DNA of 64,000 nt from Alphaproteobacteria bacterium (GTDB taxonomy: Bacteria; Pseudomonadota; Alphaproteobacteria; MPNO01; UBA830): contig OZ219791.1 in NCBI GenBank assembly GCA_964291215.2, positions 2,560,001 to 2,624,000 of the forward strand. The letters are read 5' to 3'. Below the pieces are notes generated by a model that saw only the letters and a program-made list of their open reading frames with translations, was not told the origin of the DNA and searched no databases. Every line of letters begins with the position of its first letter. The first letter of the stretch is position 1. This document shows positions 1,278 to 33,217 of this stretch, in pieces. The position numbers and the translations under genes are program-made.

Positions 1278-3068
1278 GTATCTACTCACCCCTAGTTGGG
1301 TTCTGATTGGTCGTAGTGCTCGTTGATGATGTCTGCGGCTTTTCCGTCGAGGGCGATCTGGGTGGCGACGAGTGGGTTGTAGCCGAGTGCGGCCATGGAG
1401 GTGAGGTAGCTTGAGCCTCGGCACCATGCTTTTGCGTGGAGCGGAAGCATCCGGACACCTTGACCTTTGCCATCCTGATCTTCTGTTCTCCGGCATTGTT
1501 GGTGAAGCTGACGTCGGGGTTGTCTGTGAAGCGCAGGTTTTCGTGTTTCACGAGACGCAGGTTGTGCGCGTTTGCGATGCGTTTTCTTTTCGTCGGCGGC
1601 GGGATGTCGGGCAGTTCCTTGGCGCCCTGATGGTACGGTAGCGCTTGCGCACGGCCCGGCGTCGTTCAGGGTCTTGGATGCGCTCTTGTTGACCTTGTGG
1701 CAGACTTCGCGGAGCAGGCTCTTCATCAGTCGCGCCCAGCGGTAGCCTCGACGACGAAGGTCAGTTCGCGCAGCAGGTGGCTGCCGCACAACTGGTGGCT
1801 ACACTGGCCCATGTACGAGGCCCAGCAGTCCAGGACGCCCTTGTAGCACGGGATGATGCCGATCTCTTGCCTCCCGGCCGCGCTTGCGGTGCGGGAACTT
1901 GCACGTCAGGGTTCCGACGACATGGAGCCACTTACTGTTGGTCCGAAATCGTCGACATGCAGGGCCGGGCGTTGCAGGAGGTGCGCCACGGCGGCCTCCG
2001 ACGCGAGCGCATCGTGAAAGCATAGCCGAGGCAGGTTGCCTCGGAGAGCCTGATGCCGGAGGTCGCCTGCACGAGCGCGACGGCACGACGCAGGGACAGC
2101 ATCTGGGCGACCAGCAGGTTGATGACGAGGGCCTGGATGCCGATGCCGTACTGCACGGGATGTTGTCGGGGAACCGGCCCCGGGCCTTGCACTTCGGGCA
2201 TTCCTTGATCTCGGCGCGGCGCTCGACGACCTCGAACACAATGTCATAGAGGACGCGGCGCTCCCGATCGATTACGCAACCTGATGTCTGGAAATTGTCG
2301 TGAAGCTGATCGAGCTGTTCCCATTTGATGTATGCCTTGGTTTCGGTTTCCCATTTTTCGTCGATCTCGACGAGGACCGCGGTTGAGAGGCGCTCCAACG
2401 AGGCAAGGTTTGGAAAGACCCTGACTTTGGAGGTGCGCCGCTTGAGTTCTTGCTAGAGCTCGATGCCGTTCGAGGTTCGCATGCGCTTGCGGTGAGCATC
2501 GGGCAAGGTGAAGACAGCGAGCCCCGCATTGTTTTCCAGCCAGTCTGCGAAGCTTGGGTGCTTGTCGCGATAGCTGGCCACGAGGGCGCCCAGTTCGGCC
2601 TCGGCGGTTTGGAGTGAGGAGGCGTGGCTCCGAGCTGTTTTCCAATACGTTTCCTGATGTCGTTGTTCGGTGCGTGCTGCACGGCGTTTTGCGCCAGGTG
2701 GAACTGGCAGCGCTGCCACATCGCCGCGCCCAGCACCGCGCGTCGTGCCGCTTTCAACCCGGCATCCGAGACGATGAAGGTCGTACCATGCAGGGCTAGC
2801 AAGCTTTCCAGGAAGGCTCGGACCTCGGCCTCGGAGAGCGCCACAGAGAGCCCCAGAACGTGCCTGCAGCCCCTATTCCGATGGCCGAGAGCGCTGCAAC
2901 ATCGCGCACAACGCCGTCATGGCGGGCTTTTTCGTAGCGCGCATCCAGGATCAGGTATTTCATCAGGGGCCGGTTGCGCCAGGCGGCGAGTTCTTCGTCG
3001 AGCAACCTGGTGGCCCGGCTGACCTGAGAAGAGGACAGGCTCCCGAACTCGCGCATCACATCTTCGGC

Positions 3069-3252
3069 CAGGGCTCTTCTTTTTCCCGGTTTCGTCCGAC
3101 GAGGGGGCGTTGTAGGCAGATCTGGAGGTCCATTCAGGAGCGGACTTCGTTGTCGATATGCCGGTTTCGATCTTGAGACGGTGCCACCAACTTCAAGAAC
3201 GGCCACTCTGACACGGTTGTCTGCCGCCGACCGCGACAACAGAATGGTCCTG
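3069..3252. mobile_element. 184-bp MITE, ISAs1-like ends
   Basis: Ends cagggctcttct / caggaccattct; perfect 10-bp TSD catcttcggc (3059-3068, 3253-3262); absent from the sister IS256 copy at 32.8 kb. Confidence 0.8.
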
Positions 3253-3655
3253 CATCTTCGGCCTGCCGTGTGGAAACACCCTTGATGTACATCTCGGCTA
3301 CGGCCACGGCGCGAGAAGATCGCTGGCCGCGTTCAAGCGACTGGGGATAGAACGGGTCGTCCCCGTGACCGGCCGTCTTTGGCACTTGAACGGTAACAGT
3401 CCCGACGGGGGTGTCGATCCGCTTGTAGCCGTTGGCATAGCCCTGTCGCTCCGGTGTCCGGTGGCCCGCTTTCAAGTGCTGCTCGCGCTCGATTTGCATC
3501 GCAAGCTCGAAGAGCTGGCAAAAAACCCGCCCTAGATCCGTTGCTCCGTTTGCGATCAGATGTTCCAAAACAGTCCCGATCGTCGTAGTGTGTCGCAGGT
3601 CCATTCGCTTCCTCCATGAAGGTTTTACAACTCCATGGGATAGCACGATGGCGCC

Positions 3656-3691
3656 GCGTTTCACTGGGGGGCTAGCCCCCCAGTGAAACGC
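3656..3691. repeat. 36-bp perfect palindrome in the IS256 left end (near-perfect copy at 35704-35740)
   Basis: gcgtttcactggggggctagccccccagtgaaacgc. Confidence 0.9.
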
Positions 3692-4396
3692 CTCAAAGCG
3701 CAAACCTCAGACAAATTTCCAGACATCAAGTTACAGTACCCCTATCCCCCTATCCGACGGGGTCGACGCCGTCGGCGCCGCAGGCGTCGCAGGCATCGAC
3801 CGCCTCCTCGACGATGGTCTTGCGCAGGTTGTCGCCCATCTGCTGGTTTGGCTTCGGGCCTTTGCCGTTGCTCCCGGCACGCCTCGCGCTCTTGTCCGTC
3901 TGTGACGGCGGCAGACCGGAGTTCCGGCTCGTTTTGCGCGTGGTCTTCTCCAGAAGGACGACGATGAGGATGTCGAGCAGGAGGACGCGGATCACGGCCT
4001 CTTTCGGCACCTTGCCGGCCGCACGCAGCGCCGCGACCTTGGCCGCTTCGAACTCCTCGCGCGCCGCGTTGACCGTCGCCATCACCCGGCCTCGACGGTC
4101 GCCGCGAGCATCGCCTGGCGCTCGCTCGGCGGCATCTTCCGGTACTCCGCCGCCCGGCCTTGCGCTTCATCAGCGCGCCGCCTCCGAGATGCGTTTCCAG
4201 ATACAGATCATGCGGGGGCTGGAGCCCCGGAAGCAGCTGGCACAGCCCGCTCGTCGCCTTCGATCCAAAGTAGCCCACTGGCGATCCCCGTCGCTCTCGA
4301 TGACCACCACAAAACGAATCGGGTGTCAAATTTCCACGAAAACCCGTTCGTTGCTCTACCCCGACATCAAGCCGGAACCAGGGGGTGAGCAGTTAC

Positions 4397-4454
4397 CAAA
4401 TGGGAACAGCTCGATCAGCTTCACGACAATTTCCAGACATCAGGTTGCGTAATC
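4397..4454 (+). mobile_element. Right terminus of the IS256 copy begun at 1024
   Basis: Matches the reverse complement of the IS256 end at 2270-2327. Confidence 0.85.
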
Positions 4455-4698
4455 TCACGAGGGAGGACATCACGGCGCTCTGCGCCCTGGCCGCCCATTC
4501 AAGCTTCCCCGGGCACCGCCGGACATGACCATCATGAGTTTCGTCGCGCTCACCGGCGGGCTGCCCGGGACACAGAAGCTATGGGAGGGCGTCAGGTTCC
4601 TGTCTCAGGCCGTCATCGGCATTCGGGCCAAGGAGGGCTGGGACGAGAACCACTCGGAAGGAGATGAAGACACGGAGTTAAGTATGTTAGATTGATAG
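4455..4698 (+). pseudogene. IS4/Tn5-like transposase C-terminal fragment
   Basis: LPGTQKLWEG motif, similar to MPGTHKLWEG at about 19.4 kb. Confidence 0.55.
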
Positions 4699-5185
4699 GC
4701 CCGAGACCATCGCCTGACACGGCAGCCCCTTGAGCAGTTCAAGGAGTTCGACATGGTCGGAATCGGTGCAGTCGTGGCGGCACCGCCGGCCCGACCGGCG
4801 AGTCGCCTGCAGGTACGGCGGGTCGCTGCAGACCAGTTCCGTGCCCCGGAACGCAAAGCCGGCCAGGAACGCGTGGGCGCAGCCAGTTTCACCGGATAGT
4901 CGCACCCGAACCCGTCCGGCGCTCCCGGTCGAACACGGCGCCGGCGCCTTGTGCTTCATCAGCGCGCCGCCTCCCGGATGCGTTTCCACATACAGATCAT
5001 GCGGGGGCCGAAGCCCCGAAAGCAGCTGACACAGCCCGCTCGTCGCCCTGGATCCAGAGTAGCCCATCGGTGGCCCCCGTCGTTCTCGATGACCGTCACT
5101 GAACGAATCGGGTGTCAAATCTCCACGAAAACCCGTTCGTTGCTCTACCTCGACATCAAGCCGGAACCAGGGGGTGAGCGGTTAC
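4699..5185 (-). pseudogene. IS66-like left end plus truncated D12/Dam-like adenine methyltransferase
   Basis: MGYSGSR...YVETHPGGGA...SDPPY; TIR gtaaccgctcacccc ending at 5185; a second residual TIR ends at 5210. Confidence 0.75.
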
Positions 5186-5474
5186 CCCAGAATAAGGGGT
5201 GAGCAGCTACGAGAGATCTAGCGTATTGCGCGACATTCCGGTCGTGGGGCGCTGGGTCAGAATCCGTATGAGGGGCGAACTCGTGATCCTCGGGAACTCA
5301 CAATAAAGACCGCTGTGTGGTACACACCGTTATCCTCCATATTCTCTTACCGGTCGCACAGACGACGAGTCGCAGTGTCCATTCATCGAACTGTATGCTT
5401 GAGTCCGTATCGGGGTTCCTGACAAAGTGGTCCGGTGCCGTACTGACCTATCGTGATCCAGCGGCCGCCCGGTC

Positions 5475-5870
5475 TCAGCCCGTCGCCGGTTCGGGTATGT
5501 GGCACGCCGCCTGAAGCTTGTTGCCGTCGAGATCGCGAACATATGCGCCGTAGTAATGTTCGTGATACTGCGGGCGCGGGCCGGGTGGTCCCTCGTCCGT
5601 GCCGCCGTTGGCCAGCGCCGCCGCGTGAAACGCGTCGACCTGCGCGCGCGATGGCGCCGCGAAGGCGACATGGACGCCGTTGCCGATGGTGGCCGGATTG
5701 CCGTCGAAGGGCCTGAGGACGAAGAACCAGTCGAGGCCCTCGCCTTGGTAGCCCAGAAGCGCCCCCTCGCGCGTCAGCCTGCGTTCGATCCCGAGCGTGG
5801 CGAGCACGGCGTCGTAGAACTCTGCGGCGCGCTGCAGATCGTTGGAGCCGATAGTGATATGGCTGTACAT
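5475..5870 (-). CDS. VOC/glyoxalase family protein
   Basis: HITIG...FYD...GNGVHVAF...YGAYVRDLDGNKL motifs. Confidence 0.9.
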   Translation of the reverse strand: MYSHITIGSNDLQRAAEFYDAVLATLGIERRLTREGALLGYQGEGLDWFFVLRPFDGNPATIGNGVHVAFAAPSRAQVDAFHAAALANGGTDEGPPGPRPQYHEHYYGAYVRDLDGNKLQAACHIPEPATG

Positions 5871-5893
5871 GAGCCTCTCCCGCGCGGCGGCGG

Positions 5894-6661
5894 TCAGTGC
5901 ACGTTGCTCCAGATGCGTCGCTTGGCGACATAGAGGAGGCCGGTCAGGAGCAGCAGGAACAGGATCACCTTGATGCCCATGCGCTTGCGCTCTTCCAGTT
6001 CGGGCTCGGCTGCCCAGGCAAGGAACATCGTGACGTCGCGGGCCTGCTGGGCTACGCTTGCTTTCGTCTTGTCGGCATACTCGACCCCATCTTCGGACAG
6101 CGGCGATGGCATGGCGATCATGTTGCCCGCGAAATGCTTATTGTAGCTCATGCCCTCCGGAACGTCCATCCCGGACGGCGCCTCGGCATATCCCGTCAAC
6201 ACGGCATACACATAGTCGGTCCCACCGAGTGTCGCCTTGGTCATCAGCGACAGGTCCGGCGGCAACGCGCCATTGTTCGCCGCGCGCGCCTCCTCGTCGT
6301 TTGCGAAGGGCGACTTGAATCGGTCGGAGGGTTTTCCGGGCCGCTCGAACATCTCGCCTTCGTCGTTCGGTCCGTCCTCGACATCGACCGTGGCCGCGAT
6401 CGCCTTGACGTCGTCCTCGGAGAAGCCGATTTCGGTCAGGTTGCGATACGCAACCAAGCGCAGTCCGTGGCAGACGGCGCACACCTCCTTGTAGACGACG
6501 AAGCCGCGCTGCAGGGACGGACGGTCGAAGGCACCGAACAGGCCCTGGAACGACCAGTACTGCTTTGGCGCCTCAGGGGCCTCGGCTGCGGATGCGGGTG
6601 TGGTCAGCGAAAGCGCAACGGCGGCTGCGCATGCCGCCAGCGGGGCCTTGAACGCCCTCAT
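5894..6661 (-). CDS. petC: Cytochrome c1 of the bc1 complex
   Basis: CAVCH heme motif, PPDLS, C-terminal TM helix; ATGA overlap with petB. Confidence 0.97.
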
Positions 6662-7968
6662 TGCGCCCGCTCCGCGGCGGCGGCCGCGCCTCCTCCGAGC
6701 ACCGGCCCGGAAATGCTGGTGGGCACCGGTCTCGGTTTTTCGAGGATGCCGAGAAGCGGAATGATCACCAGGAAGTAGAGGAAGTAGAACGCCGTCGCGA
6801 TCCGGCCAATGATCACGAAATACCCCTCGGCCGGATTGGCGCCGACCCAGCCCAGCACCGCGCAGTCGATCACGAACAGCCAGAAGAACTGCCGGAACAG
6901 GGGGCGGAAGCGCGACGACCGCACCGGGGAACGGTCGAGCCACGGGAGAAGGAACAGCACGCCGATGGAGCCGAACATCGCCAGCACCCCGGCGAGCTTG
7001 GCGTCGAAGATGACGAACCCCATCCAGTTCGTCACCCAGCCGCCGATGAAGTTATCCGGGACTGCGCGCAGGATCGCATAGAACGGCAGGAAGTACCATT
7101 CCGGCACGATATGCGGCGGCGTCGCGAGCGGGTTGGCCGGCAGGTAGTTGTCGGGTTCGCCGAAGAAGTTGGGCGCGAAGAAAATGAACCCGGCAAACAC
7201 GATGAGGAACACCCCGAGCCCGAACGTGTCCTTGATCGTGTAGTAGGGATGGAACGGGATGACGTCCTGGTCTCCCTTGGTGTCGATGCCGACCGGGTTG
7301 TTGGAACCATGGACATGCAACGCCCAGATGTGGAGGACGACGATGCCGACCAGCACGAACGGCAGGAGATAGTGGAGGCTGTAGAACCGGTTTAGGGTCG
7401 GGTTGTCGACCGCGAAGCCACCCCACAGCAGGGTGACCAACCAGTCACCGATGCCCCACGGTATCGCGGAGAACAGGTTGGTGATGACGGTTGCGCCCCA
7501 GAAGCTCATCTGGCCCCAAGGCAGCACATAGCCCATGAAGGCCGTCGCCATCATGAGCAGCAGGATGACGACGCCGAGTATCCACAGGAGTTCGCGCGGC
7601 GCCTTGTAGGATCCGAAATACAGCCCGCGGAAGATGTGGATGTAGACCACGACGAAGAACGCCGAAGCGCCGTTCATGTGGATGTACCTGATCAGCCACC
7701 CGTAGTTGACGTCACGCATAATGCGTTCGACCGAATCGAACGCGTGGTCCGTGTGCGGAACGTAGTGCATCGCGAGCGTGACCCCGCTCACGATCATGAT
7801 GACGAGGATAGTTCCGGCAAGTGATCCGAAGTTCCACCAGTAGTTCAGGTTCCTGGGCGTCGGATACTCGTAGAGCTCGTGGCTCACGAAGGAAAAAACA
7901 GGAAGCCGGTGATCGACCCACCGGACCAGCGGATTCTCGAGCCACGCGGGTTTGCTGAACTGTGCCAT
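6658..7968 (-). CDS. petB: Cytochrome b
   Basis: [24 protein letters not shown] and PEWY motifs. Confidence 0.98.
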
Positions 7969-7979
7969 GTCCGTAGTCC

Positions 7980-9241: not shown

Positions 9242-9323
9242 GGCGTCTTCTATCCCAGCCGGTCCCGGGAGATCAAGACCGGCTGGCGGTTCCCGAGACC
9301 CCGGGAACTGGCCGGTTGCAGGA

Positions 9324-10929: not shown

Positions 10930-10930
10930 T

Positions 10931-11803: not shown

Positions 11804-13008
11804 CAGACGATCCCCGCGTCGCGCAGCCGGGCCCGGTCCGCCGCGCTGCGGCCGAGCAGGGCCAGCACCTCGTCGGTATGCTCGCCGAGTTCGGGCGCCG
11901 GCGTGCGGATCGTCCCCGGCGTTTCGCTCAGCCGCGGGAACGGCGTGTGCAGCGGGATCGTGCCGTGATCGGCGTCGGGATAGTCCTCGGCGACGGCGCG
12001 ACCGCGGATATACTCGTGGTCGATCAGGTCCGTCGGATCGCAGATCGGCCCGACGGTGACGCCGGCGGCCCCGAAATGGTCGAGATTTTCCCGCAGCGTC
12101 CTCGCGCTGATGAAGCCGCCGACGATCCCGTCGAGTTCATCCATGTTGTCGACGCGGTCGCGCCCGGAGCGGAAGCGCGAATCCTCGATCAATTCCCGGC
12201 GCCCGATGGCGATGGCCACCTTCTGCCACATGGACTGCATCGAGGCCGACAGGGCGAGATATTTGCCGTCGGCGCACCGGTAGGCGTTGCGCGGCGCGGC
12301 GATCTTGCTTCGGTTGCCTTCGCGGATCGGAATCTTGCCGTTGGCCTTGTAATGCGCCAGCCAGGGGCCGATCACGCTGAACAGGGGCTCGAACAGGGAC
12401 ACGTCGACGACCTGTCCCCGAACCCGGCCGCTGTCGCGCGCAAAGAGGGCGACGACCGACGCGCCGAAGCCGGCGATGCCGGCGATCATGTCGGCGAGCG
12501 CCATCGGTGGCAGGAGGGGCGGCTTGTCCTCGAAGCCCGTCATGGCGGCAAAGCCGGTCAGCGCTTCAACCAGGGTGCCGAAGCCCGGCTTGTCGGCGTA
12601 GGGGCCGGTCTGTCCGTAGCCAGAGACACGGACGATCACGAGGCCGGGCTGCGTCTTCCAGAGTTCCTCGGGGCCGAGGCCCCATTTCTCCAGGGTTCCG
12701 GGCACGAAATTCTCGACCAGCATGTCCGACCGGGCGATCAGATCGTTGAGGAGGGCGGCGCCCTCCTCTTGCCGGAAATCGAGCGTGAAGCTCTTCTTGG
12801 AGCGGGCGTATTCCTTCCACCATACCCGCCCTTCGCCGAAGTCGCGCAGATCGTCCCCGGTGCCGGGGCGTTCGATCTTGATAACCTCCGCCCCGAAATC
12901 GGCGAGCATGCGCGTGACCATGTTTCCGGCCGCCAGCCGGGTCATGTCGACGACGCGGACGCCGGCCAGCGGGCCTTCCGATTCGGGCCAGTATTCGCCG
13001 TTCTGCAT
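11803..13008 (-). CDS. Class III (CaiB/BaiF) CoA transferase
   Basis: GPLAGVRVVD, LADFGAEVIKIERP, ENFVPG, GYGQTGPY, APELGEHT; GGAG RBS upstream of ATG 13008. Confidence 0.93.
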   Translation of the reverse strand: MQNGEYWPESEGPLAGVRVVDMTRLAAGNMVTRMLADFGAEVIKIERPGTGDDLRDFGEGRVWWKEYARSKKSFTLDFRQEEGAALLNDLIARSDMLVENFVPGTLEKWGLGPEELWKTQPGLVIVRVSGYGQTGPYADKPGFGTLVEALTGFAAMTGFEDKPPLLPPMALADMIAGIAGFGASVVALFARDSGRVRGQVVDVSLFEPLFSVIGPWLAHYKANGKIPIREGNRSKIAAPRNAYRCADGKYLALSASMQSMWQKVAIAIGRRELIEDSRFRSGRDRVDNMDELDGIVGGFISARTLRENLDHFGAAGVTVGPICDPTDLIDHEYIRGRAVAEDYPDADHGTIPLHTPFPRLSETPGTIRTPAPELGEHTDEVLALLGRSAADRARLRDAGIV

Positions 13009-16184: not shown

Positions 16185-16912
16185 GTGTGCTACGAAGACA
16201 ACAGGAGGTGAAGGTGTAGCCAACTGGAAGTCATGCTGTGCAAGAGATGAGGGTGGGCCCCTTGGAGCCCGCCGTATAGGCGGAGGCTTCAAACCGCCCA
16301 CGGCTGCTGTGCTCAAGAGACACGGTGGTGAGCGCGCTGGGAAAAGGCCGGCCATCAGAGTCGGTCAGGTGAGCAAGTCAGAGCTGAACGCGAGTGAACC
16401 ACTGATAATGCGTCGTCAGGCGTAAGTGGCGTCAAAAGCGGGGAAAGTACCTCGTCCTCGGGACGAGTTCGGGAGGAGCCCGTTTATGGCCCGGACGGCG
16501 CCCGGCATTCAGGTGGCAGGACTTTCTTGCAGGCTCTTGCATGGAACGTGGGAACCTGTCGTTTCGATGCAAAGGGAGACCCGCAACCGGAGGCTCCGGG
16601 AGCGGCAGAGTACCGATGCGGGGCACAAGGACGGAGCGATCCGTAATAGTGACGAAGGATCTGTAATGGGTCTGGAGCGAAGGGGAGGCCTGCCTGACGC
16701 AAGCGTTTGGTCACGCAGTGAGGCATAATGGAGCTGAGCGAATGCGGGCGAGATTCGGGACAGTGCGTAGTTGCCACCGTCATCCCCGTCACCGTCACCC
16801 ATTGACCGAACGCTTACTGCCTGACTTGGAGAACCGGAACAACTGGCAACAGGAGGAACCCGATGACACAGGAAAAGCCGTCAGGCCTGGGCAGGAAGAG
16901 CCGTATGACGGG
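16185..16912 (+). ncRNA. Group II intron 5' remnant (class D, RmInt1-like): DI-DIII and start of the IEP, 3' part lost
   Basis: Starts GTGTGCT; RmInt1-like motifs gatgcaaagggaga, gagtaccgatgc and gaaggatctgtaatgggtctggagcgaagggg; aactggcaacaggag then MTQEKP. Confidence 0.75.
16699..16817. mobile_element. 119-bp IS66-type MITE inserted in the intron
   Basis: TIR g(c/t)aagcgtt(t/c)ggtca; 8-bp TSD tgcctgac (16691-16698, 16818-16825). Confidence 0.8.
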
Positions 16913-17093
16913 CAGGACTTTCCCACGCTGCATTCGATCTTGTCGACTGCTGATGGAGGGAGGTTGCACAGCCTGCCGGGTTTTCTGGCCGCGGGGCCGG
17001 GTCGCCGCAGCCGGAAAACCTGGCAAGAATGCGGAAATTTGTGCCCCGTTCAGCGGTCATTCAATACATCAACCACAGCGTGGGAAAGTCCTG
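16913..17093. mobile_element. MITE family A, copy 2
   Basis: Perfect 18-bp TIR caggactttcccacgctg. Confidence 0.88.
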
Positions 17094-17117
17094 GTTCCGA
17101 CCCACGGCGATCCCATG

Positions 17118-17261
17118 CTGATTCCGAGACTCGAAATCCAAATGTGTTGGGGCTCGCGTAATCACATATCGCCCCTTGATCGCAATTTTTCGCGCCGAGA
17201 AAGTCTCATTGAGCCTTGGCGGCACGATTGCAGCGCGACGCAGACCGAAAAATCTCGCCGG
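17118..17261 (-). repeat. ~145-bp dispersed repeat (probable IS end), inverted copy at 37871-38014
   Basis: Reverse complement aligns with 37871-38014, with substitutions. Confidence 0.65.
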
Positions 17262-17316
17262 TCGCCGCTGGATTAGCAGCGTGGGATCGTCGTGGGTTCC
17301 GACCGGTCCCGTATAT

Positions 17317-19496
17317 CTTTCAACTTATCACTGTAGACTCGAAGCAACTGATGCCGTATATACGGTTCCATGAGAATTGGCCTGCGACATTATGGCGGCG
17401 AGACGGTTGACTGGCTGAAGGCACGGCTTGGCGCCGGGGATTGCACGCGGACCTTCCTGGCACGTGAGCTCTGCGAGCGTGAGGACTGGCGGAACGCGAA
17501 GGGAGAACTATGCCTCGCCTCGGCCCGGGCCGCGCTTCCAAAGTTCTCCGCCGCACTCGGTCTGCCTCTGCCGGAGGCTCGTCCGATGGGAGGGGTAACC
17601 CCGGAGTCCCTGGCCCCGTCGCCGGATTATCCCGACAAGCACCTGTCGTGCCATCTCGGCGATCTTGGCGAGGTGGTTCCGGTTGCCGACGAGGACAAGT
17701 CGCTGGCGCGGTCGATGATGGCATCGCACCATCCCGAGGGCGATGCGGCCTGTCCCGGCGGGCGCATCCGCTACTGGATTCTCTCGTCCCTGCACGGCGT
17801 CCTCGGCGGCCTGGCGCTGCGTCCTGGCATCACAAAGCGCGGGACCTTCACATCGGCTGGCGGCGCGGGACGCTAACATCGGGCGGGTTGTCAACAATGA
17901 CAGGTTTCTTCTGCTTCCCGGCGTCCGTGGCGCTGTCGCTGTTCCATGATCGCGTGACTGGGAGGAGCGCTACGGTGTTCGCCTGGCGTACAGCTACGTG
18001 GGTGCGGAGCATACGGGCCAGAGCTACCGTGCGGCGGTGTGCTGCCGGACAAGAGGCCTCGGTTGCGGGTGTACATGAAGCCGCTGTCGGCGGACTGGAG
18101 GGAGTCTCTCGGGCGGGCGCCGGGCCGGGTGATCGGTTCAGGTCCGCCTCTCGCGTCAAGGGAGGATGCGACATGGGCCGAGACGGAGTACGGACGGAGC
18201 GCGCACAGCGACGCACGCAAGCGCCTTGTCACGATGGGCGAGGCCTGGTGCGGTCGTCCGGGTGCACCGCTGCCGATAATCTTTCCCGGCGAGGCGGAGC
18301 AGCAGGCGGCTTACAGGTTCCTGTCGAACCCGAGGATCGGCATGCAAGACATCCTTGAGCCACATCAGGAGGCGATGGTCGAGCGTTGCCAGTCTGTCGT
18401 GCTTGCGGTTCAGGACACAACGATGCTGAACTACAGCGAGGCGACGCAGGGCCTTGTCGACATCGGCGGCGGCGGCTCTGGAAGCAAGGGGATCGCGGCT
18501 CATGTCGGCGTTGCGTTCAGCGAGGGCGGCTGCGCACTGGGGGTATTCAGCCTTGATGCCGGCTTCCGTGCGGAGGACAAGGCAACGGCGGTGGAGGGCG
18601 AGGAAAGCGGACGCTGGACGGACGCCTTCGCCAAGTCCGCCGAGCTGGCCTGTCCGCGAACTCGCCCGTCTGCGACCGTGAGGGCGACATGTGGTCTCTT
18701 CTGTCGGAAGCCTGCGCCTCCGCGCCCAGCGGCTTCTGGTCCGCGCCAGCCGTTCGAGCCGGCGGCGGGCCATCACGGCGGACGGCAAGGTCAGGGACCT
18801 GTTCGCGCACGCGGCCGAATTGGATGTCGTCGCGGAGAAGACGATCGATCTGTGGCGGCCCCCGGACGCGCAAGGGGCGCAAGAACATCAAGCTGGAGCT
18901 GCGGGCTGGTCTCGTCGACCTCGTCCCGCCCTGGGCACGGCCCCACTCACCATGCTCGCAGTGCGCGTCCTGGAGAAGATGCCGCCAACAGGCAGGGACC
19001 GGCTCGACTGGTTGCTCTTGACCACCGAAGGTGAGCCCACGCAGGAGAACGCGATCCGCATCGTCGCCTGGTACGAGAAACGCTGGTTGATCGAAGAGTG
19101 GTTCGCGGCCGTCAAGACCGGAACGCGGATCAAAGACCGCAGGCTCAACGCCGCCGACGACCTGAGGAAGTGCCTCGCCTGCCATTACTGCATGCACCGT
19201 CATGTCCGTCGAGCGCCTCGCGCGGAGCGCATGCCGGCGCGCACGATCGTCCACGAGGACGAGATCCATGTCCTCGCCGTCCACATACCGAACCACCGCA
19301 GGCAACGCGGCCCCCGGATCAGGCGATCGCGGAGTTCGCCGTCAACACCGCGCGCCTCGCCGGATTCATCCCGTCGAAGCGCCAGCCCATGCCGGGCACC
19401 CACAAACTCTGGGAAGGATACCTGATCTTGTTCACTGAAAACTACCGGGCTATGCGCGACTACGCCAACATCGAGTCGACAGTGTACCATTGAAAG
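17317..19496 (+). mobile_element. IS4-family element with DUF4338-like + Tn5-like transposase pseudogene
   Basis: TIR ctttcaa.....cactgt.gactcga; 9-bp TSD cccgtatat (17308-17316, 19497-19505); AAYRFLSN, VLAVQDTT, YEKRWLIEEW..K motifs in several frames. Confidence 0.88.
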
Positions 19497-19531: not shown

Positions 19532-19561
19532 GCGGACACAACCATCGTGGAGGTATTGGCG

Positions 19562-24855: not shown

Positions 24856-25346
24856 TGCTGAGAATCGGATCGGACCGGAAGGCGCGCGTCATGGTCACGG
24901 TGAACGGCAGGCAAATGTCGGGACATGCCGCACCGCGGATGCTGCTCGCGGACTTTCTCCGCCACGAGCTCGGGCTCTTCGGGACCCATGTCGGGTGCGA
25001 GCACGGCGTGTGCGGCGCCTGCACGGTGATCGTCGACGGCGCGGTGTCCAGAAGCTGTCTCCGCTATGCGGTGCAGTGCGACAGCAGCGAGATCCGCACG
25101 GTCGAAGGGCTGGCTGGCGATGACGGCGAACTCAACGCCCTGCAGCGGGCCTTCAACCGGCACGGAGCTCTCCAGTGCGGCTTTTGCACCGCCGGCATCC
25201 TGATGTCGGCCACGCGATTCCTGGAGGAAACGCCGGCGCCGACGCGCGAACAGGTTCGGGACATGCTGTCGGGGCATATCTGTCGTTGCACCGGCTACGA
25301 GCAGATCGTGCGCGCCGTCCTTGATGCGGCAGGAGAGAACTCATGA
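24852..25346 (+). CDS. hmfC: 2Fe-2S subunit of the molybdenum hydroxylase
   Basis: GCEHGVCGACTV, QCGFCT, CRCTGY. Confidence 0.8.
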   Translation: MMLRIGSDRKARVMVTVNGRQMSGHAAPRMLLADFLRHELGLFGTHVGCEHGVCGACTVIVDGAVSRSCLRYAVQCDSSEIRTVEGLAGDDGELNALQRAFNRHGALQCGFCTAGILMSATRFLEETPAPTREQVRDMLSGHICRCTGYEQIVRAVLDAAGENS

Positions 25347-26881
25347 ATCTCGGCACCCTTTTCCACCGCAGCTGGCTGCGCGAGCCGGACGCGCTGGCTA
25401 TCGTCGACGATTCACGACGGCGCAGTTTCGGCGAGTGGTATCGCGAGATCCGCGCGGTCGCCGGCGGCCTGAGCCAGCGTGGCCTGGGCCGCGGCGACCG
25501 GCTCCTCGTGATTCTGGCAAACCGCTACGAGACGGCGACTCTCTACTGGGCCTGCCAGGTGCTGGGTGTGGTATTCACGCCGTTTAACTGGCGCGCTGGC
25601 GCCGACGAGATCGCCTATGTGATCGGCAATGCCGAGGCGGCCGGCATCGTGTTCGAGGCGCGCTCGCGCGAAGCCGCTGCCGGAGCCGTCGGCAGTCTCG
25701 GTGGCGCAGGGCTGACGACGTTCGATATCGATGACGGAGATTTCGATGCGCTCGCCGCCTCTCCCTCGGTCGACGGGCCGGTCTCCGTCGACGAACGCGA
25801 TACCTGCCTGATGCTCTACACCTCGGGCACCACAGGCCGGCCCAAGGGCGTGCCGCGCTCGCATCGCGCCGAGCGGCTGGCGGCAACCCACTGCATCGCG
25901 CTCCTGCATTACCGTTACGGGGCCTCGACGCTTGGCGCGATGCCGATGTTCCACACCATGGGCGTGCGGTCGATGCTGATGTCGGCCGTGCTTAGTGGCG
26001 CGCTGGTCTGCCTCCCGGCGTGGGATGCGGCGACCGCCATGGAACTTGTCGAGCGGGAAGGGATCGACACCCTGTTCCTCGTGCCGACGATGTTTCACGA
26101 CATGCTCCATCATCCTGATCGCGGCGCCCATGACCTGTCGTCGGTACGCAATCTTGCCTATGCCGGGATGTCGATGACCGCGGCGCTGACCGAGCTCTGC
26201 GCGCGGGAGTTCAGGCCCGATCATTTCACCAACTTCTACGGGTCAAGCGAAATCTTTACCTTCGCCGTCTGCGATCACGTGATCGAGAAGCCGGGCTGCG
26301 CCGGCCGCGCCGGCATCGGTCAGGTCATTCGCGTGGTCGAGCCCGACGGCGGTAGCCGGCCGGATGATGTCGTTGCCGCGGGCGCGTCGGGCGAGATCAT
26401 TGCGCCGATGGACGGGATGGAGGCGTTCGCCGGCTACTGGCGGCGTCCGGATGCCGACGCCAAGGCGATCCGCGATGGCTGGTACTTCACCGGCGATCTT
26501 GGCTATTTTGACGGGGACGGCGAGCTCTATGTCGTCGGCCGCGTCGACGACATGATCAATTCCGGTGGCGAGAACATCTATCCCGAGGAGGTCGAGGACA
26601 TTCTCGCGAAATCGCCGCTGGTCGAACAGGCGGCGGTCATCGGCCTGCCCGACGAGCGCATGGGGGCGCGGGTGGTCGCGTTCGTGGAACCGGCGGCACC
26701 GGAATGCACGGCCGAGGCGCTCGATGCCTGGTGCCTCGACAGCGCGCTCGCCCGCTTCAAGAGGCCGCGCGGCTACGCCTTCGTGAAAAACATACCGCGC
26801 TCCGCTTCGGGAAAGCTCCTGCGGCGTCTGCTGCGCGACGGAAGCTACGAGATGCTCGACGGATTCGAGAGCACGGTCTGA
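25343..26881 (+). CDS. hmfD: Acyl-CoA synthetase, 2-furoate-CoA ligase-like
   Basis: YTSGTTGRPKGVPRSHRAER, WYFTGD, SGGENIYP. Confidence 0.78.
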   Translation: MNLGTLFHRSWLREPDALAIVDDSRRRSFGEWYREIRAVAGGLSQRGLGRGDRLLVILANRYETATLYWACQVLGVVFTPFNWRAGADEIAYVIGNAEAAGIVFEARSREAAAGAVGSLGGAGLTTFDIDDGDFDALAASPSVDGPVSVDERDTCLMLYTSGTTGRPKGVPRSHRAERLAATHCIALLHYRYGASTLGAMPMFHTMGVRSMLMSAVLSGALVCLPAWDAATAMELVEREGIDTLFLVPTMFHDMLHHPDRGAHDLSSVRNLAYAGMSMTAALTELCAREFRPDHFTNFYGSSEIFTFAVCDHVIEKPGCAGRAGIGQVIRVVEPDGGSRPDDVVAAGASGEIIAPMDGMEAFAGYWRRPDADAKAIRDGWYFTGDLGYFDGDGELYVVGRVDDMINSGGENIYPEEVEDILAKSPLVEQAAVIGLPDERMGARVVAFVEPAAPECTAEALDAWCLDSALARFKRPRGYAFVKNIPRSASGKLLRRLLRDGSYEMLDGFESTV

Positions 26882-26967
26882 TCGGGGAACGGCTCTCCGG
26901 GGGGCATCTCAGCGGGACTATTTGATCGGCCGGGACGTCTCCCGGCCTCAATACGGAGAACGGGAAC

Positions 26968-27783: not shown

Positions 27784-27951
27784 GCCGACGCTGCGGGGCG
27801 CGTTGACGCCGCGCTGCCCGCCGGGCGGACGCCGGGTTGTAATTCCGCCCGTCGCCCCGTTACTCTTTGTCCCGGTGATGTTCGGTCCGCGCGGTGTGGC
27901 GCCAGCGGCCGGGTCGGGATCGCGGTGCGGACGCGATGGGGGGGGCGACGG

Positions 27952-28944
27952 ATGACGCGGGGACTCGGGATCCGTTTCGACGGGTTCGACCATGTGTCGG
28001 ACTCGCTCGAGGTCGTGCGCCAGGCAGAGCGAGCGGGTGCGAGCCAGATCTGGATGGCGGAACACATGGGCTATCGGGAGGCCGTTGCCGCCTGCATGGC
28101 CTATGCGCTGTCGACCGAGACCGCAATGGTGGTTCCGACCGCGGTCAGCCCTTATCTCTGGCATCCGACTCCGACCGCGATGTCGCTTGCGACCATGGCC
28201 GACATCGCCCCCGGGCGCGTCGGCGTCGCCATCGGCGTCGGCAATCCGCTGTTCCTGGGCGAATCGGGCATTGAGCCTGTGAAGCCGGTACGGGCGGTGC
28301 GGGAATTCATCGAATGCCTGCGGGCGCTGTGGACCGCGGAGCCCGTTGACTATGACGGCGAATTCTTCCGCCTTGCCGGAGCGCGCATGACGTTCGCCCC
28401 GGCAGAGCCCATACCGATCTATGTCGCGGCAACGCGCGAACAGATGCTGCGGCTGACCGGACGGATCGGCGACGGGGTCGTGCTCTCGGGCGGACTGTCC
28501 GTCGCCCATGTCCGGTACAGCCTTGGACAGATCGCCGACGGCGCGCGGGCGGCGGGACGGGATCCGGCTGCGCTCCGCAACGCCGCATTCCTGTATTTCT
28601 CGGTGTCGGAAGACGGGCGGGAGGCCGTGGACTATCTGCGCGGACGGCTTGCTTTCCTGTTCCGCAACCGCACGATGGCCGACAACATCCGCTCCTCGGG
28701 CCTTCCCATCGATCAGGAGGCCATTATCGACGCCGTCGCCAGGCGCGACATGGAAGCCGCGACGCGGCTGGTCCCCGACGATGCCGTCGATGCCTTTGCT
28801 GTCGGGGGCACGCCGCGGAACTGCCGCGACCGTCTTGAGGCCTATCTCGGCACCGGTGTGACCGAACCGGTCATCGAGATCAGCGGTTCGCCGGAGAGCC
28901 GGGAGCTCGCGCTCGGGATCCTCGGAGAGTTCGCGGCCGCCTGA
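27952..28944 (+). CDS. LLM-class (Mer/luciferase-like) flavin or F420 oxidoreductase
   Basis: IWMAEH, GRVGVAIGVG, PIPIYVAA, GDGV. Confidence 0.88.
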   Translation: MTRGLGIRFDGFDHVSDSLEVVRQAERAGASQIWMAEHMGYREAVAACMAYALSTETAMVVPTAVSPYLWHPTPTAMSLATMADIAPGRVGVAIGVGNPLFLGESGIEPVKPVRAVREFIECLRALWTAEPVDYDGEFFRLAGARMTFAPAEPIPIYVAATREQMLRLTGRIGDGVVLSGGLSVAHVRYSLGQIADGARAAGRDPAALRNAAFLYFSVSEDGREAVDYLRGRLAFLFRNRTMADNIRSSGLPIDQEAIIDAVARRDMEAATRLVPDDAVDAFAVGGTPRNCRDRLEAYLGTGVTEPVIEISGSPESRELALGILGEFAAA

Positions 28945-28995
28945 CGCGGCGGACCGTTTTCGGGCTCAGGCGGCTGCAGGAGGCATCGGCGCTTC

Positions 28996-30102
28996 ATGGG
29001 AATCCGGACGATAGCGATCATGGGCGCCGGCCATGGCGGCCTTGCCGCCGCCGCCGATCTGGGCGCGGCCGGTTTCGAGGTGCGCCTCCATGCGCGTCGT
29101 GAGGAGACCCTGACGCCGGTTCGCGAGCAGGGCGGCGTCGCGGTGCAGGGCGCGCGGACAGGTCTGGTCAGGGTCCCGGTGCTGACCACCGACGTGGCCG
29201 AGGCGGTCGACGGGGCCGACCTCGTGATGACGGTAGTGCCCTCGGTCGCCCACGGCGACTATGCGGCCGCGCTCGCGCCGCATCTGCGGCCGGATCTGCC
29301 GGTCTTTGTCAATCCGGGGCACACTGGCGGCGCCCTGCATTTCGTTCGCGAGCTGCGTCGCGCGGAGTACCGGGAGCCGGTGCGAACCTGTGAATCGGTT
29401 ACCCTGACCTATATCTGCCGCAAGACGGGGCCGGCAGCGGTCGATATCTTCTCCCATGTCCGCAACCTGAAGTTCGCCGCATTTCCAGGATGCCATGCTG
29501 GCGAGATGTTCTCGCTGATCAAGCCCCTCTATCCGGAGATCGAACTGTGTTCGAGCGTGCTCGAGACGGGGCTGACCAACATCAATGCCGTCTTCCACGC
29601 GCCAGGCATGCTGATGAACGCTGGCTGGATCGAGGATACGGGCGGCGATTTCCTCTTCTACCGGGAGGGCATCACGCCGGCTGTCGGCCGCGTCACCGAA
29701 GAGGTCGACCGTGAGCGCCTTCGCGTGGCGGATGCGCTCGGCGTGCCGTCCGCCTCGTTTCTCGAGAATTTCTGCCAAGCCGGACTGACCACCCGGGAAG
29801 CGGCCGACAGCGGCGACATTTCGCGGGCTTGTATCGAGAGCGAACCCAACAAATCGATCAGGAGTCCGCCGTCGCTTGATCATCGCTACATTCACGAGGA
29901 TGTTGGCTATGGGCTGGTGCCCTTCGCCGCGTTCGGCGATCTTGCGGGCGTGGAGACGCCGACCATTGATGCGATCGTTCATCTCTGCTCGGCGTTGACC
30001 GGCATCCCGTTCTTTGAGACCGGCCTCACTCTCGACAGGATGGGGCTGGGCGGGCTGACGTCTGGCGACCTCGCGCGTTTCGTACACGATGGTGTTGGTT
30101 GA
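28996..30102 (+). CDS. NAD/NADP opine (octopine/nopaline) dehydrogenase family protein
   Basis: GAGHGG, NPGHTGG, NINAVFH, FYREGITP, HRYIHEDVGYGL. Confidence 0.9.
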   Translation: MGIRTIAIMGAGHGGLAAAADLGAAGFEVRLHARREETLTPVREQGGVAVQGARTGLVRVPVLTTDVAEAVDGADLVMTVVPSVAHGDYAAALAPHLRPDLPVFVNPGHTGGALHFVRELRRAEYREPVRTCESVTLTYICRKTGPAAVDIFSHVRNLKFAAFPGCHAGEMFSLIKPLYPEIELCSSVLETGLTNINAVFHAPGMLMNAGWIEDTGGDFLFYREGITPAVGRVTEEVDRERLRVADALGVPSASFLENFCQAGLTTREAADSGDISRACIESEPNKSIRSPPSLDHRYIHEDVGYGLVPFAAFGDLAGVETPTIDAIVHLCSALTGIPFFETGLTLDRMGLGGLTSGDLARFVHDGVG

Positions 30103-30400
30103 AATCTCACGGTGAGGAGGAGTGCGAAACCGCGCCGGAACAATGGTCGTCGGATCGGGAGCGTCCCGGATTTGAGCACGGTTCCGGTGCAAATGCGGTG
30201 AGTTCTGTGATGGTCGGGATGCAGATCCCGGTGACGCGGCTCACCCCTGCTGCGAGGAAGGAGGGCACCGGCGGGTACGAGAGAGAGCCGGGTGTCGTGT
30301 CATGAGCATTTACGCTTGCAAGTCGGCAGAATTCCCCACCCGCAGATGAAAGAGGAAATCAGCACTTCCAAATTTATGTTCGGGTTCAAATCCTCCATCG

Positions 30401-30799
30401 TCAGCTTGCTTCCGCTTCCGTCAACCGGCTTCGGACCGTCCTGCGCAACGCTTCCACCTGTTCGATGGCCAAGGACCGGTCAAGCGGGCAGGCGCCCGGA
30501 TCGACGCTCGCGTAACGCAGACGAACGGCGTAGCGGGTATAGTCGACCAACTTGTCGAAACGGACGACATCCGCTTCCTGGGTGCTTAGCATGTCCAGCA
30601 AGGCCGCCAGATCATGCGACAACGGATAGGTTTCGCCCCGCAAAGCGAGCCAGGCCTTGAACAGCTTCTCTGCTGCTTGCTGGACATGGAAGCCAAAAAT
30701 CTCGTCGGCGAAGACGTTTGCATCGCCCATGCCGTGAAGCGCCGAAAGATCTTTCTCCGCCGCGTTGGTTAATTCCCGCGCCTGCTCAAGGTCTTTCAT
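30401..30799 (-). CDS. HEPN domain protein
   Basis: FHVQQAAEKLFKAWL, HDL, RY motifs; overlaps the upstream MNT gene. Confidence 0.88.
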   Translation of the reverse strand: MKDLEQARELTNAAEKDLSALHGMGDANVFADEIFGFHVQQAAEKLFKAWLALRGETYPLSHDLAALLDMLSTQEADVVRFDKLVDYTRYAVRLRYASVDPGACPLDRSLAIEQVEALRRTVRSRLTEAEAS

Positions 30800-31121
30800 A
30801 GAGCACTCTGCCCTCGCGCAGCGCACGCGCAAGCACATGATTAAGGGAGCCGCGCCAGCGGGCAGCCTCGTCCGAACTGTATACGAGGATATCCTTCGGA
30901 ACGTGGAAAGTTGCAAGCGCACGCCAAAGGCGCGTCTCTTCGGTGCCGCGGTCCCGACCCGGCCCAAAAGGTTCTGCCTCGACGACCACCAGATCGACAT
31001 CCGAATCCGCGGCGGCGTCACCGCGGGCGCGAGAGCCGAAAAGGATCACCCGCTCGGGATCAGCTACTTCAACGATGGCCGCCGTCATCCGCCGCAGAAG
31101 CGCATCGTCAATCACAGGCAT
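30786..31121 (-). CDS. Minimal nucleotidyltransferase (MNT)
   Basis: ILFGSRARGD...SDVDLVVV. Confidence 0.92.
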   Translation of the reverse strand: MPVIDDALLRRMTAAIVEVADPERVILFGSRARGDAAADSDVDLVVVEAEPFGPGRDRGTEETRLWRALATFHVPKDILVYSSDEAARWRGSLNHVLARALREGRVLYERP

Positions 31122-31299
31122 GTTCTTTTCCACCTGTTCGGATGCCTCTATCATCCTGGAAAGCAGTGAAAAGGGTGCCGTTCGCTACCGGCAACTAGTT
31201 CTGCCGCAAGGCTCCCGCACTCCGTCCCGTCCGCAACAATCACGCTGTAGTCGGTCGGCAGACTTATCCGGGTACCTTCAGGGGCGGTGGAGCGGCACC

Positions 31300-31650
31300 G
31301 TCGAATCGTTTGACCGCATCGCTTCCGGCCCGGGTCAGCTATCGTATGGATTTCGATAGAAATCGACCGGTGAACAAGCTCATATTCTCGTCGATCAACC
31401 CCTTCTTGCCGGTCCACTTTTCCGTTGCATCGTAGTCCTCGATCAACACATGCGGCGGGCAATGAAGGCGAACAGGTTAGCCACCGGAATCAATCCTGCA
31501 TGGTGCGGCCTGATCGAGAATGTCGAGTCCATGATTTGGCCGAGCCGTGTCTACTTCCTCTTCCTGTCGTAGTCGTCCTCAGCCCAAGTTGGTAGTTTCC
31601 TGAGTACATCGCAGAGCTTGCCTACTTTACCCTCGTTGTCATCGAAGATC
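31300..31650 (-). pseudogene. DUF3800-like protein C-terminal remnant
   Basis: Minus-strand translation LIFDD...*...QIMDSTFSIRPHHAGLIPVANLFAFIARR with an internal stop; truncated by IS sequence. Confidence 0.4.
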
Positions 31651-32021
31651 AAGAGTAACTCAAGGTGATCCCATGCTTGTTGATGTGATGTGATCGGAGT
31701 CCTGATCGCGGCGCGGGTCGACGCGTTCGAGGCTGCGATTTTGAGATTTGCTGACGCGCTGTTGCGGCGCGGGGCGCGACTGGTCGGCGTATCCGGGGCG
31801 AGCGAGAGGCCTTGGTTGCCGGGCTCGAAAGCTTGCAGTTTCTGTCGGGGAGAGAGGCGCGGTCAGCCTGGTCTTGTGATTGCGTGCAGGACCTGCTTGC
31901 GCTTGTCGGCATAGTGGTGGCGGGCGTCGACGAAGCTGTTGAAGGGTTTGGGCAGCTTGTTGTGGATGATGATTGCGAGGGTGAGCGCGTTGTTTGCGGG
32001 CGCGTTCGGAGCATGGAGTTG
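31651..32021 (-). pseudogene. ISAs1-family transposase 3' remnant (other part at 35790-35926)
   Basis: Joined across the IS256 insertion it reads LAWNRGHWVVESHHHVRDATFRED...APANNA. Confidence 0.6.
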
Positions 32022-33217
32022 GATTACGCAACCTGATGTCTGGAAATTGTCGTGAAGCTGTCAGTCATCGAGCTGTTCCCATTTGATGTATGCCTTGGTT
32101 TCGGTTTCCCATTTTTCGTCGATGAGGACCGCGGTTGAGAGGCGCTCCAACGAGGCGAGGTTCGGAAAGACCCTGACTTTGGAGGTGCGCCGCTTGAGCT
32201 CTTGCTGGATCGGCCGCTCGATACCGTTCGAGGTTCGCATACGTTTGCGGTGAGCATCGGGCAAGGTGAAGACAGCGAGCCCCTCGGGCGCATTCTTTTC
32301 CAGCCAGTCTGCGAAGCCTGGATGCTTGTCGCGATAGCTGGCCACGAGGGCGCCCAGTTCAGCCTCGGCGGTTTGGAGTGAGGACGCATGGCTCCGAGCT
32401 GTTTTCCAATACGTTTCCTGATGTCATTGTTCGGTGCGTGCTGCACGGCGTTTTGCGCCAAGTGGAACTGGCAGCGCTGCCATGTCGCCGCGCCCAGCAC
32501 CGCGCGTCGTGCCGCTTTCAGCCCGGCATGGTCATCCGAGACGATGAAGGTCGTACCATGCAGGGCTAGCAAGCTTTCCAGGAAGGCTCTCCAATGGACC
32601 TCGGCCTCGGAGAGCGCCACAGAGAGCCCCAGAACGTGCCTGCAGCCCCTATTCCGATGGCCGAGAGCACTGCAACATCGCGCACAACGCCGTCATGGCG
32701 GGCTTTTTCGTAGCGCGCATCCAGGATCAGGTATTTCATCAGCCCAAGGGGCCGGTTGCGCCAGGCGGCGAGTTCTTCATCGAGCAACCTGGTGGCCCGG
32801 CTGACCTGAGAAGAGGACAGGCTTTCGATCCCGAACTCGCGCATTACATCTTGCCGCGTGGAAACACCCTTGATGTACATCTCGGCTACAGCCAGCATGA
32901 CGGCGCGAGAAGATCGCTGGCCGCGTTCAAGCGACTGGGGATAGAACGGATCGTCCCCGTGACCGGCCGTCTTTGGCACCTGAACGGTAACAGGGGGGTG
33001 TCGATCCGTTTGGGCTTGTAGCCGTTGGCATAGCCCTGTCGTTCCGGTGTCCGTTCGTAGCGGCCCGCTTTCAAGTGCTGCTCGCGCTCGATTTGCATCG
33101 CAAGCTCGAAGAGCTGACCAAAGATCCGCCCCAGATCCGTTGCTCCGTTTGCGATCAGATGTTCCAAAACGGCCTCAATCGTCGTAGTGTGTCGCAGGTC
33201 CATTCGCTTCCTCCATG

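Follow-up and report, generated by a model that had tools for sequence, protein, structure and literature searches.

Deletions of 5-7 nt erode repeated DNA in an alphaproteobacterial genome and most likely spread one way among its copies

The stretch of 64,000 nucleotides (nt) analysed here (G000:C2:2560001-2624000, hereafter the window) contains two decayed copies of an IS256-family insertion sequence (IS) which differ mainly by missing segments of about six nt, and the question it raises is what process removes pieces of such a constant size. The window belongs to an alphaproteobacterial genome (G000; 6.15 Mb in two contigs, 64% G+C) where repeated DNA makes up about 2.1 Mb (34%), distributed in 858 regions and in families of up to about 170 copies. 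It was compared with its sister genome (G001), with a congener (G002) and with the rest of the genus set (five genomes, G000-G004), as well as with three conspecific sample runs from a single study (X1-X3), of which X1 may be the source sample of G000. These comparisons revealed a real and strange mutational process, and the evidence is most likely explained by one-way spread among copies: rare deletions of 5-7 nt would be copied from one homologous copy to another in a size-windowed, deletion-biased gene conversion, to which we assign a probability of about 0.6.

Local alignment of the two IS256 copies (2270-3619 and 32022-33217) gave 13 gaps, namely eleven of 6 nt, one of 7 nt and a miniature inverted-repeat transposable element (MITE) of 200 nt, and no indel of 1-5 nt. 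A first-pass annotation of this DNA had counted 13 short indels of 6 or 7 nt and had noted the absence of 3-nt indels; the sizes and the absence were borne out, but the total is twelve. The segments that it quoted were also recovered, with ten six-mers missing from the first copy and ctcgac and tcccgac missing from the second. Its non-coding examples are present and represent shared alleles: the segment at 33292-33297 is found in 46 genomic copies and lacking in 9, and that of the MITE, whose coordinate was off by one base, is found in 8 and lacking in 2.

Concerning the repeats of the whole genome, 168 windows with a total reference length of 70,305 nt were surveyed. Each window has 4-174 copies, of which no more than 50 were sampled; unions of copies served as family references, and likely tandem duplications were taken out before the count. 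Indels of 5-7 nt occupied 885 of the 1,617 sites (206 of 5 nt, 432 of 6 nt and 247 of 7 nt), and the other sizes included 226 sites of 1 nt, 46, 62 and 38 of 2, 3 and 4 nt, 76 of 8 nt and 48 of 9 nt. The 1-nt-dominated spectrum without a 6-nt peak, named beforehand as the outcome that would speak against the idea, was therefore not seen. On the other hand, "almost exactly 6 nt" proved too narrow a description, since the genome-wide class is 5-7 nt with its mode at 6. Minor peaks at 12-14 and 18 nt are probably merged neighbouring events.

The direction of the events was read against an intact 393-aa IS256 transposase (P0008), which is about 93% identical over the aligned residues. Three IS256 copies showed losses solely and no gain with respect to it, six in window copy B and 23 and 24 in two heavily eroded copies, nearly all of 5, 6 or 7 nt with a few of 12-18 nt. 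The family has 78 near-full copies in G000, and their union spans all 393 transposase residues, while a full-length intact frame was not found among the eight longest matches. In 400-nt windows with at least 20 copies, 1,555 of the 1,588 copies carry at least one deletion of 5-21 nt, and the mean length lost is 9.8% per copy. Two other readings were discarded: insertions, as majority-rule polarity would have it, because the intact transposase shows deletions common to most copies, and tandem duplications or transposon footprints, because microhomology is mostly 0-2 nt.

The deletions also rise with copy number. From two-copy repeats to those with more than 100 copies, the number of 5-7-nt gaps per substitution increased in the order 0.015, 0.024, 0.046, 0.076, 0.125 and 0.184, while substitution density was flat across copy-number classes (32-45 per kb). 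Deletions of this size per kb per copy were 1.9, 3.3, 6.2, 10.8 and 9.7 over five copy-number bins, and the family-level correlation with copy number (53 families) was rho = 0.71 for deletions and 0.09 for single-nucleotide polymorphisms (SNPs). With G001 as outgroup, 0.14 losses per kb were found in single-copy DNA (920 kb), 0.77 in repeats of 2-3 copies (15.6 kb) and 13.2 in those of 10-29 copies (7.7 kb), where 101 losses were counted in G000 and none in G001. Repeats suffer up to a hundredfold more than single-copy DNA, tracking copy number. The proposed check of repeated against single-copy density thus found repeats far denser, and the two alternatives offered by the first-pass annotation, a genome-wide process purged from genes or one aimed at repeats, hold together, as genes are spared except for in-frame losses.

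In single-copy DNA, G000 and G001 were compared over an alignment of 905 kb, obtained from about 1.15 Mb, at 7% divergence. Segments of 5-7 nt were missing 113 times in G000 and 6 times in G001, whereas indels of 1-4 nt were balanced (161 and 130, respectively; Fisher p = 4e-17 for the contrast). Within a 610-kb subset, the 550 kb of coding DNA contained 7, 34 and 4 events of 5, 6 and 7 nt, and the 60 kb of non-coding DNA contained 9, 17 and 9. This in-frame bias indicates selection, which purges frameshifts and tolerates some two-codon losses. The neighbouring host genes are not as intact as they had looked, since in-frame 6-nt losses are located in a cytochrome c1 open reading frame (ORF) and in an AMP-binding enzyme (6598 and 26341, both polarised by G004; Table 1). 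Microhomology of at least 3 nt was found in 53 of the 113 single-copy events of G000, where many founding deletions look like slippage at short imperfect repeats, and the events showed no replication-strand bias (leading/lagging, 23 vs 24).

The signature is also present in G002, which belongs to the same genus and is about 79% identical; about 0.42 Mb of it was examined, in regions picked around IS66 hits. Its repeats contained 554 unique indels, 440 of them of 5-7 nt (177, 226 and 37 of 5, 6 and 7 nt), whose microhomology is what chance predicts (none in 226 of these events; null 52%). Eight close eroded IS66 copies or pieces presented 1-25 deletions each relative to the intact IS66 of the same genome and no insertion of that size. 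Some of these deletions are common to subfamilies 7-12% apart, and 52 of 378 shared-deletion pairs conflict with the tree. In the other congeners, 5-7-nt indels were 9 of 42 (G004) and 1 of 5 (G003), and in the repeats of G036, G045 and G049, IS-rich genomes of another family with young copies, they were 1 of 9, 1 of 13 and 0, no peak being seen among so few events. The proposal of a lineage-restricted process is supported by the contrast of 113 losses with 6 in G001 and by the signature in G002. The size ruler thus differs by lineage (5-7 nt in G000, 5-6 nt in G002), and G001 appears to be without the process.

The 185 G002 events used for the motif share a preference on one strand, with A73, T81 and C68 at positions 1-3 of the deleted piece and a purine after its end in 76%. 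The repeats of G000 present a weaker purine-pyrimidine-C version of this start, and the log-likelihood per event was 1.71 in G002 against 0.21 in shuffles, and 0.48 against 0.06 in G000. The single-copy events of G000 show no such motif and have more microhomology. A single strong motif in G000 was rejected, as only weak preferences were seen, and so were GATC, GANTC and TTGAT as signals, whose required flanking positions show no preference.

The first-pass annotation treated each indel as an independent event of cutting and joining. Nevertheless, most of them are the same alleles in dozens of copies, in a mosaic arrangement. In IS256, deletions with identical ends are found at about 25 sites, each affecting 6-97% of the copies, and over the 251 clusters with at least 10 deleted copies the top allele averages 94% of these. 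Of the 407 alleles of 5-7 nt, 52 are singletons, compared with 68 of the 122 alleles of 1-4 nt (Fisher p = 9e-21), and 137 of 199 six-nt alleles exceed a frequency of 20%. Shared mosaic alleles and a density that follows copy number therefore indicate that the load in IS elements comes mainly from homology-dependent spread.

The relation of the deletions to the surrounding SNPs points in the same direction. Linkage (r2) between deletions and SNPs was 0.17 at 0-5 nt and 0.10-0.14 beyond, while between SNPs it was 0.54 and fell to 0.30; in IS256, SNP linkage decays within 15-30 nt and most marker pairs show four gametes. The sharing of deletions was 0.82, 0.62, 0.54, 0.60, 0.34 and 0.01 at SNP distances of 0-3, 3-6, 6-9, 9-12, 12-15 and at least 15%, and the variance of deletions per IS256 copy was 16.5, compared with 3.5 expected under independence. 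Furthermore, the SNP diversity of deleted relative to retained copies (186 sites) was 0.38, 0.43, 0.50 and 0.57 at 2-5 nt from the junction and 0.77-0.81 at 11-300 nt, with a near/far ratio of 0.59 (0.45-0.73 by bootstrap over 45 windows). Recurrent deletions made in silico gave 0.92-0.99 at 2-5 nt, and the retained copies have no dip in diversity near the junction. On the motif strand, co-conversion seemed to go a little deeper at the 5' side (0.31 vs 0.52 at 2-3 nt). Microhomology of at least 3 nt accompanies 24% of the repeat events of G000 versus 7% by chance, and isolated deletions unique in the genome show no preferred size within 5-8 nt (7, 4, 7 and 4). The combined pattern is the footprint expected of one-way copying between repeats with a patch of few bases, to which recurrence may contribute in part.

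This copying could proceed in a few steps. Founding deletions of 5-7 nt would arise across the genome at a low rate, RecA would pair an intact copy with a deleted one, and the intact strand would loop out of the heteroduplex. MutS would handle or reject loops up to about 4 nt and miss longer ones, giving the lower size edge, and a short-patch nuclease would then excise the looped strand and patch a few bases per side with the deleted strand as template, so that loss would act as a ratchet. In vivo, MutS loop repair ends at about 4 nt. MutS is described as binding loops of 1-5 bases with varying affinity (PMC4081059), and loops of at least 19 nt as staying unrepaired in E. coli (PMC2082072). 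UvrC is described as incising on both sides of a lesion, 3' at the 4th or 5th bond and 5' at the 8th (PMC7835731). UvrABC is our best single guess for the loop-removing nuclease, although a tentative one, because the patch of about 12 nt suggested by these positions could hold a loop of up to 7-8 nt plus a few paired bases. As UvrABC is conserved in G001, a changed partner or another nuclease would be needed to explain the distribution of the signature. In G002, the preference for an A-T-C start suggests that founding deletions, too, come from strand-specific nicking. It is possible, if less likely than not, that the whole is a dedicated homology-guided loop-excision system, with a strand-specific nuclease that seeds 5-7-nt deletions and prints each one into all copies that are similar enough. 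Multiplying elements would then be ratcheted into non-function by a bacterial counterpart of repeat-induced point mutation (RIP), working through templated deletion with a lineage-specific ruler.

The 19-fold excess in single-copy DNA may come from a higher founding rate, or from the same drive acting between chromosome copies or between cells. Relaxases of integrative and conjugative elements (ICEs), relevant to exchange between cells, are present in G000. ComEC was matched in none of the five genus genomes, compared with 10 of 14 control genomes, and natural transformation is therefore an unlikely route.

The possibility that all this is a sequencing or assembly artefact, which the first-pass annotation had asked to exclude, was addressed with Logan contigs of the three conspecific samples, assembled separately. 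They carry the same 5-, 6- and 7-nt variants in the IS block, and those of the block at 31659-36481 recur there too; among the 12 variants displayed (42 more lie outside this set), nine are of 5-7 nt and three of these occur in all three runs. One run is identical to the window over 3,190 nt, and the other two come from diverged strains (11 differences in 3,190 nt and 14 in 1,508 nt). The three runs derive from one study, one of them possibly from the source sample itself, and their read type is unrecorded. However, core genes are intact, in-frame events dominate coding DNA, which needs selection, and in G002 young intact IS copies sit beside eroded ones, so that an artefact is hardly credible. 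Replication slippage with loops just too long for MutS would fit the lower edge at 5 nt, the balance of 1-4-nt indels between G000 and G001, the microhomology of the single-copy events and the flat sizes of isolated deletions, and it may be the source of some founding alleles. As an explanation of everything it is very unlikely, since microhomology is at chance level in G002, the same MutS is found in G001 with only six such events, and a leading/lagging bias is absent. Slippage predicts no dependence on copy number, and the observed rise refutes it as the whole explanation, which upholds the earlier statement that neither reading-frame selection nor ordinary slippage suffices.

The absence of any directional step, with deletion-biased mutation, unbiased gene conversion and trans-mobilisation of damaged copies spreading alleles by drift, also has some basis, as SNPs show short-tract exchange among close copies and conversion among dead IS copies is reported in Wolbachia wBm (PMC3196728). 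We consider it improbable: neutral spread predicts mostly rare alleles, as the 1-4-nt indels are, and not the high frequencies of the six-nt class; the SNP-haplotype linkage and the dip around retained alleles that it predicts were not seen; and the trees are in conflict, with 1 to 25 deletions in G002 IS66 copies only 3-5% apart. Rather unlikely, in our view, is RIP-like cutting, in which the pairing of copies licenses one-strand nicking and 5-7 nt are removed afresh each time at endpoints set by sequence. It explains the copy-number dependence and the low SNP linkage equally well, and the strong one-stranded motif of G002, its weaker relative in G000 and an excess of overlapping alleles agree with it. 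Nevertheless, the G000 motif is too weak to fix endpoints, and yet a single allele dominates each cluster; diversity falls 3-5 nt outside the deletion, where there is little motif information; microhomology is missing from about 30% of the shared alleles; and none of nine overlapping allele pairs in G002 IS66 has the same start with different lengths.

Several observations weigh against one-way copying. Alleles overlap more often than chance predicts (179 vs 116 ± 11), and their frequency rises somewhat with their fit to the motif (rho = 0.18); hot spots could produce both. Recurrent cutting that requires a particular local sequence, and not co-conversion, could be behind the dip at 2-5 nt; a weaker dip surrounds minor SNP alleles too, and the one at 1 nt is an alignment artefact according to simulation. 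The low sharing at distances of at least 15% comes from 301 pairs in few families, the 4-9-copy bin with outgroup has 0 events in only 1.9 kb, and the IS256 union contains nine extra blocks, so some insertions score as frequent deletions. In single-copy DNA, the excess of G000 also covers 8-30 nt, which makes the upper size limit softer there, and third-genome polarity is missing for most events. Moreover, RecA, MutSL, UvrB and UvrC are equally intact in the signature-free G001 (the UvrC region is 97% identical), and the candidate searches did not find the responsible enzyme.

Concerning these searches, loss of a standard repair gene was not detected: 33 of 40 E. coli queries match in G000, and the best core-gene matches lie in long open frames. 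No match was obtained for recX, rmuC, rdgC, sbcD, recC, sbcB and ung in this genome, the only one searched with these queries. RecA, MutS (with Phe-x-Glu kept), MutL, UvrABC and PolI are open frames in G000, and RecA, MutS, MutL, UvrB and UvrC are intact in all five genus genomes; the repair gene set of G000 is largely complete despite the heavy repeat load. None of the five genomes has Ku (PF02735; LigD was not searched for), topoisomerase IB (TopIB, PF01028), RecT, YqaJ, endonuclease V, UvdE, S1/P1 or Piwi (Argonaute) matches. Fixed-stagger cleavage plus end-joining, suggested in the first pass, is disfavoured by the lack of Ku and by a motif that is one-stranded and not palindromic. A Pfam scan of 63 of the 144 ORFs near extra ssb, radC, recD and exonuclease hits gave ICE relaxases, integrase trios and helicases, and nothing decisive. 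Among these are TrwC relaxases (L208 and L209), a 1,716-aa fusion of a RecQ-like DEAD helicase and a UvrD-like helicase (L206:5764-10911), and two tandem tyrosine recombinase trios (L210:3102-6615 and L211:2446-6004) in ICE-like regions with radC or Strawberry-notch helicase genes, which we take to be a RIT (recombinase in trio)-like arrangement.

Phosphorothioate-dependent nicking by Ssp/Dnd systems was rejected, as SspBCD is also present in G001 (another subtype) and sspC is frameshifted in G002. The published Ssp motif, CCA, does not match either (motifs of these systems from PMC8092258 and PMC12914056). The SspABCD operon of G000 (G000:C1, about 876-883 kb; L283:10313-16858) consists of open frames, and no SspE or SspFGH match was found among its scanned neighbours. 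G002 has the same subtype, G001 the other one with SspFGH, and G004 DndBCDE. The sspC frameshift of G002 lies at a long poly-C run (L285, about 12555-12575), where phase variation or a homopolymer error is possible.

The features of the window are collected in Table 1. In the repeat blocks, a segment was taken as missing when it is present in at least two other copies, and some of the listed losses are alternative placements of one event. The group II intron fragment at 35180-35377 lies inside a high-copy block and bears 5-7-nt losses itself. At 51731-51772 the losses are nested, with 12 nt more in strain X2 at 51731 and about 40 nt more in G001 and X4/X5 near 51763, so erosion there still varies between strains. 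X4 and X5 are two sponge metagenomes that contain a relative about 93-94% identical to G000, which makes a sponge association of G000 likely, although it is not demonstrated for G000 itself; this related species has both extra segments of about 43185 and 45799 in X4 and the first in X5. The closest matches of the window cytochrome b are uncultured marine alphaproteobacteria. Paralogous octopine/nopaline-type dehydrogenases (28996-30102 and 41443-43020) are found amid TRAP transporters and a CoxL-like molybdoenzyme cluster, and a 44-nt segment at 30225, present in G000 and not in G001, adjoins a HEPN-domain ORF (30401-31021).

Table 1. Repeats, deletion sites and intron fragments in the window (MITE A, the MITE of the medium-copy block; tilde, approximate).
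Feature	Position	Strand	Remarks
Eroded IS256-family copy A, aligned part	2270-3619	-	Without ten 6-nt segments relative to copy B; MITE of 200 nt at 3064-3263
Eroded IS256-family copy B	32022-33217	-	Among the least eroded of 78 near-full copies
Deletions of copy B vs intact 393-aa transposase	32022-33217	-	Six: three of 6 nt, three of 7 nt
High-copy repeat block holding copy A	1039-5179		Median 105 matches; 53 listed 5-7-nt segments missing
High-copy repeat block: MITE, IS256 copy B, IS66 remnant, group II intron fragment	31659-36481		42 listed 5-7-nt losses
Medium-copy repeat block with MITE A	36928-41770		Median 13 matches; 18 listed 5-7-nt losses
Low-copy repeat block, transposase DNA-binding domain	16846-19496		Median 7 matches; only 4 listed 5-7-nt losses
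In-frame 6-nt loss junction, N-terminal part of cytochrome c1 ORF (5894-6943, minus)	6598		Segment kept in G001 and outgroup G004
In-frame 6-nt loss junction, AMP-binding enzyme (25343-26881)	26341		Segment kept in G001 and G004; 5-nt microhomology
Two single-copy losses: 5 nt at ~43185, 7 nt at ~45799	43185-45799		X2 and X3 as the window
Three clustered single-copy losses (5, 6, 6 nt)	52895-52970		Relative to G001
Two single-copy losses (5, 7 nt)	61013-61049		Relative to G001
Group II intron D1-D4 fragments	16249-16370; 35180-35377	+; -	RF01999, RF02005

The expectation for bacteria is a power law of indel sizes in which 1-nt events prevail, and mutation alone is the usual explanation for the deletional bias by which the genomes of symbionts shrink. 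No description of a 5-7-nt deletion signature or of templated deletion spread in bacteria was found in the mostly open-access literature, supplements aside. Here a molecular drive toward deletion becomes measurable in a bacterium, and it could extinguish IS explosions without selection on each copy. With one congener that has the signature, one genome that lacks it and conspecific strains, the responsible gene should be findable by comparison, and an activity that removes a 5-7-nt loop by means of a short template is a potential precise editing tool.

Among known systems, fungal RIP is a damage dependent on homology and copy number, in which a methyltransferase-like enzyme makes new C-to-T changes and no intact members are left. 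Here damage also scales with repetition, but substitutions are flat with copy number and the lesion that scales is a 5-7-nt deletion, most likely copied. In yeast and human, TopIB-dependent deletions remove 2-5 bp at short tandem repeats by cutting one strand twice. The small size of the deletions and a sequence preference on a single strand are common to both cases, whereas the genus lacks TopIB matches and the G002 events have no microhomology. The pseudogenes of Ca. Burkholderia likewise show symbiont deletion sizes off a simple power law and partial microhomology, although the account (Danneels et al. 2018, PMC6054270) describes a power law with peaks at 3, 6, 9 and 12, while here 3 nt is rare, 5 and 7 nt are about half of 6, and there is dependence on copy number. 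In Wolbachia wBm (Cordaux 2009, as related in PMC3196728), dead IS copies also share inactivating lesions by conversion, but there highly similar copies are maintained, whereas here SNP subfamilies persist and deletions cross them. The nearest likeness is the nonallelic gene conversion of Drosophila and primates, in which deletions are transferred more than insertions, about 3.5 to 1 (Assis and Kondrashov 2012, PMC3280953). In both cases deletions pass between paralogues and neutral copies shrink cooperatively; the parts of that account compared here give no size window, co-conversion limit or motif, and the present case is distinguished from the animal one by its bacterial host, the 5-7-nt window, a near-absolute direction, co-conversion over 2-5 nt and the one-stranded motif. 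As expected of deletion-biased nonallelic conversion, the same allele moves between paralogues and not by descent, with some recurrence conceivable, its transfer depends on the similarity and number of partners, and its direction favours the shorter allele, as the frequency contrast and the one-sided dip indicate.

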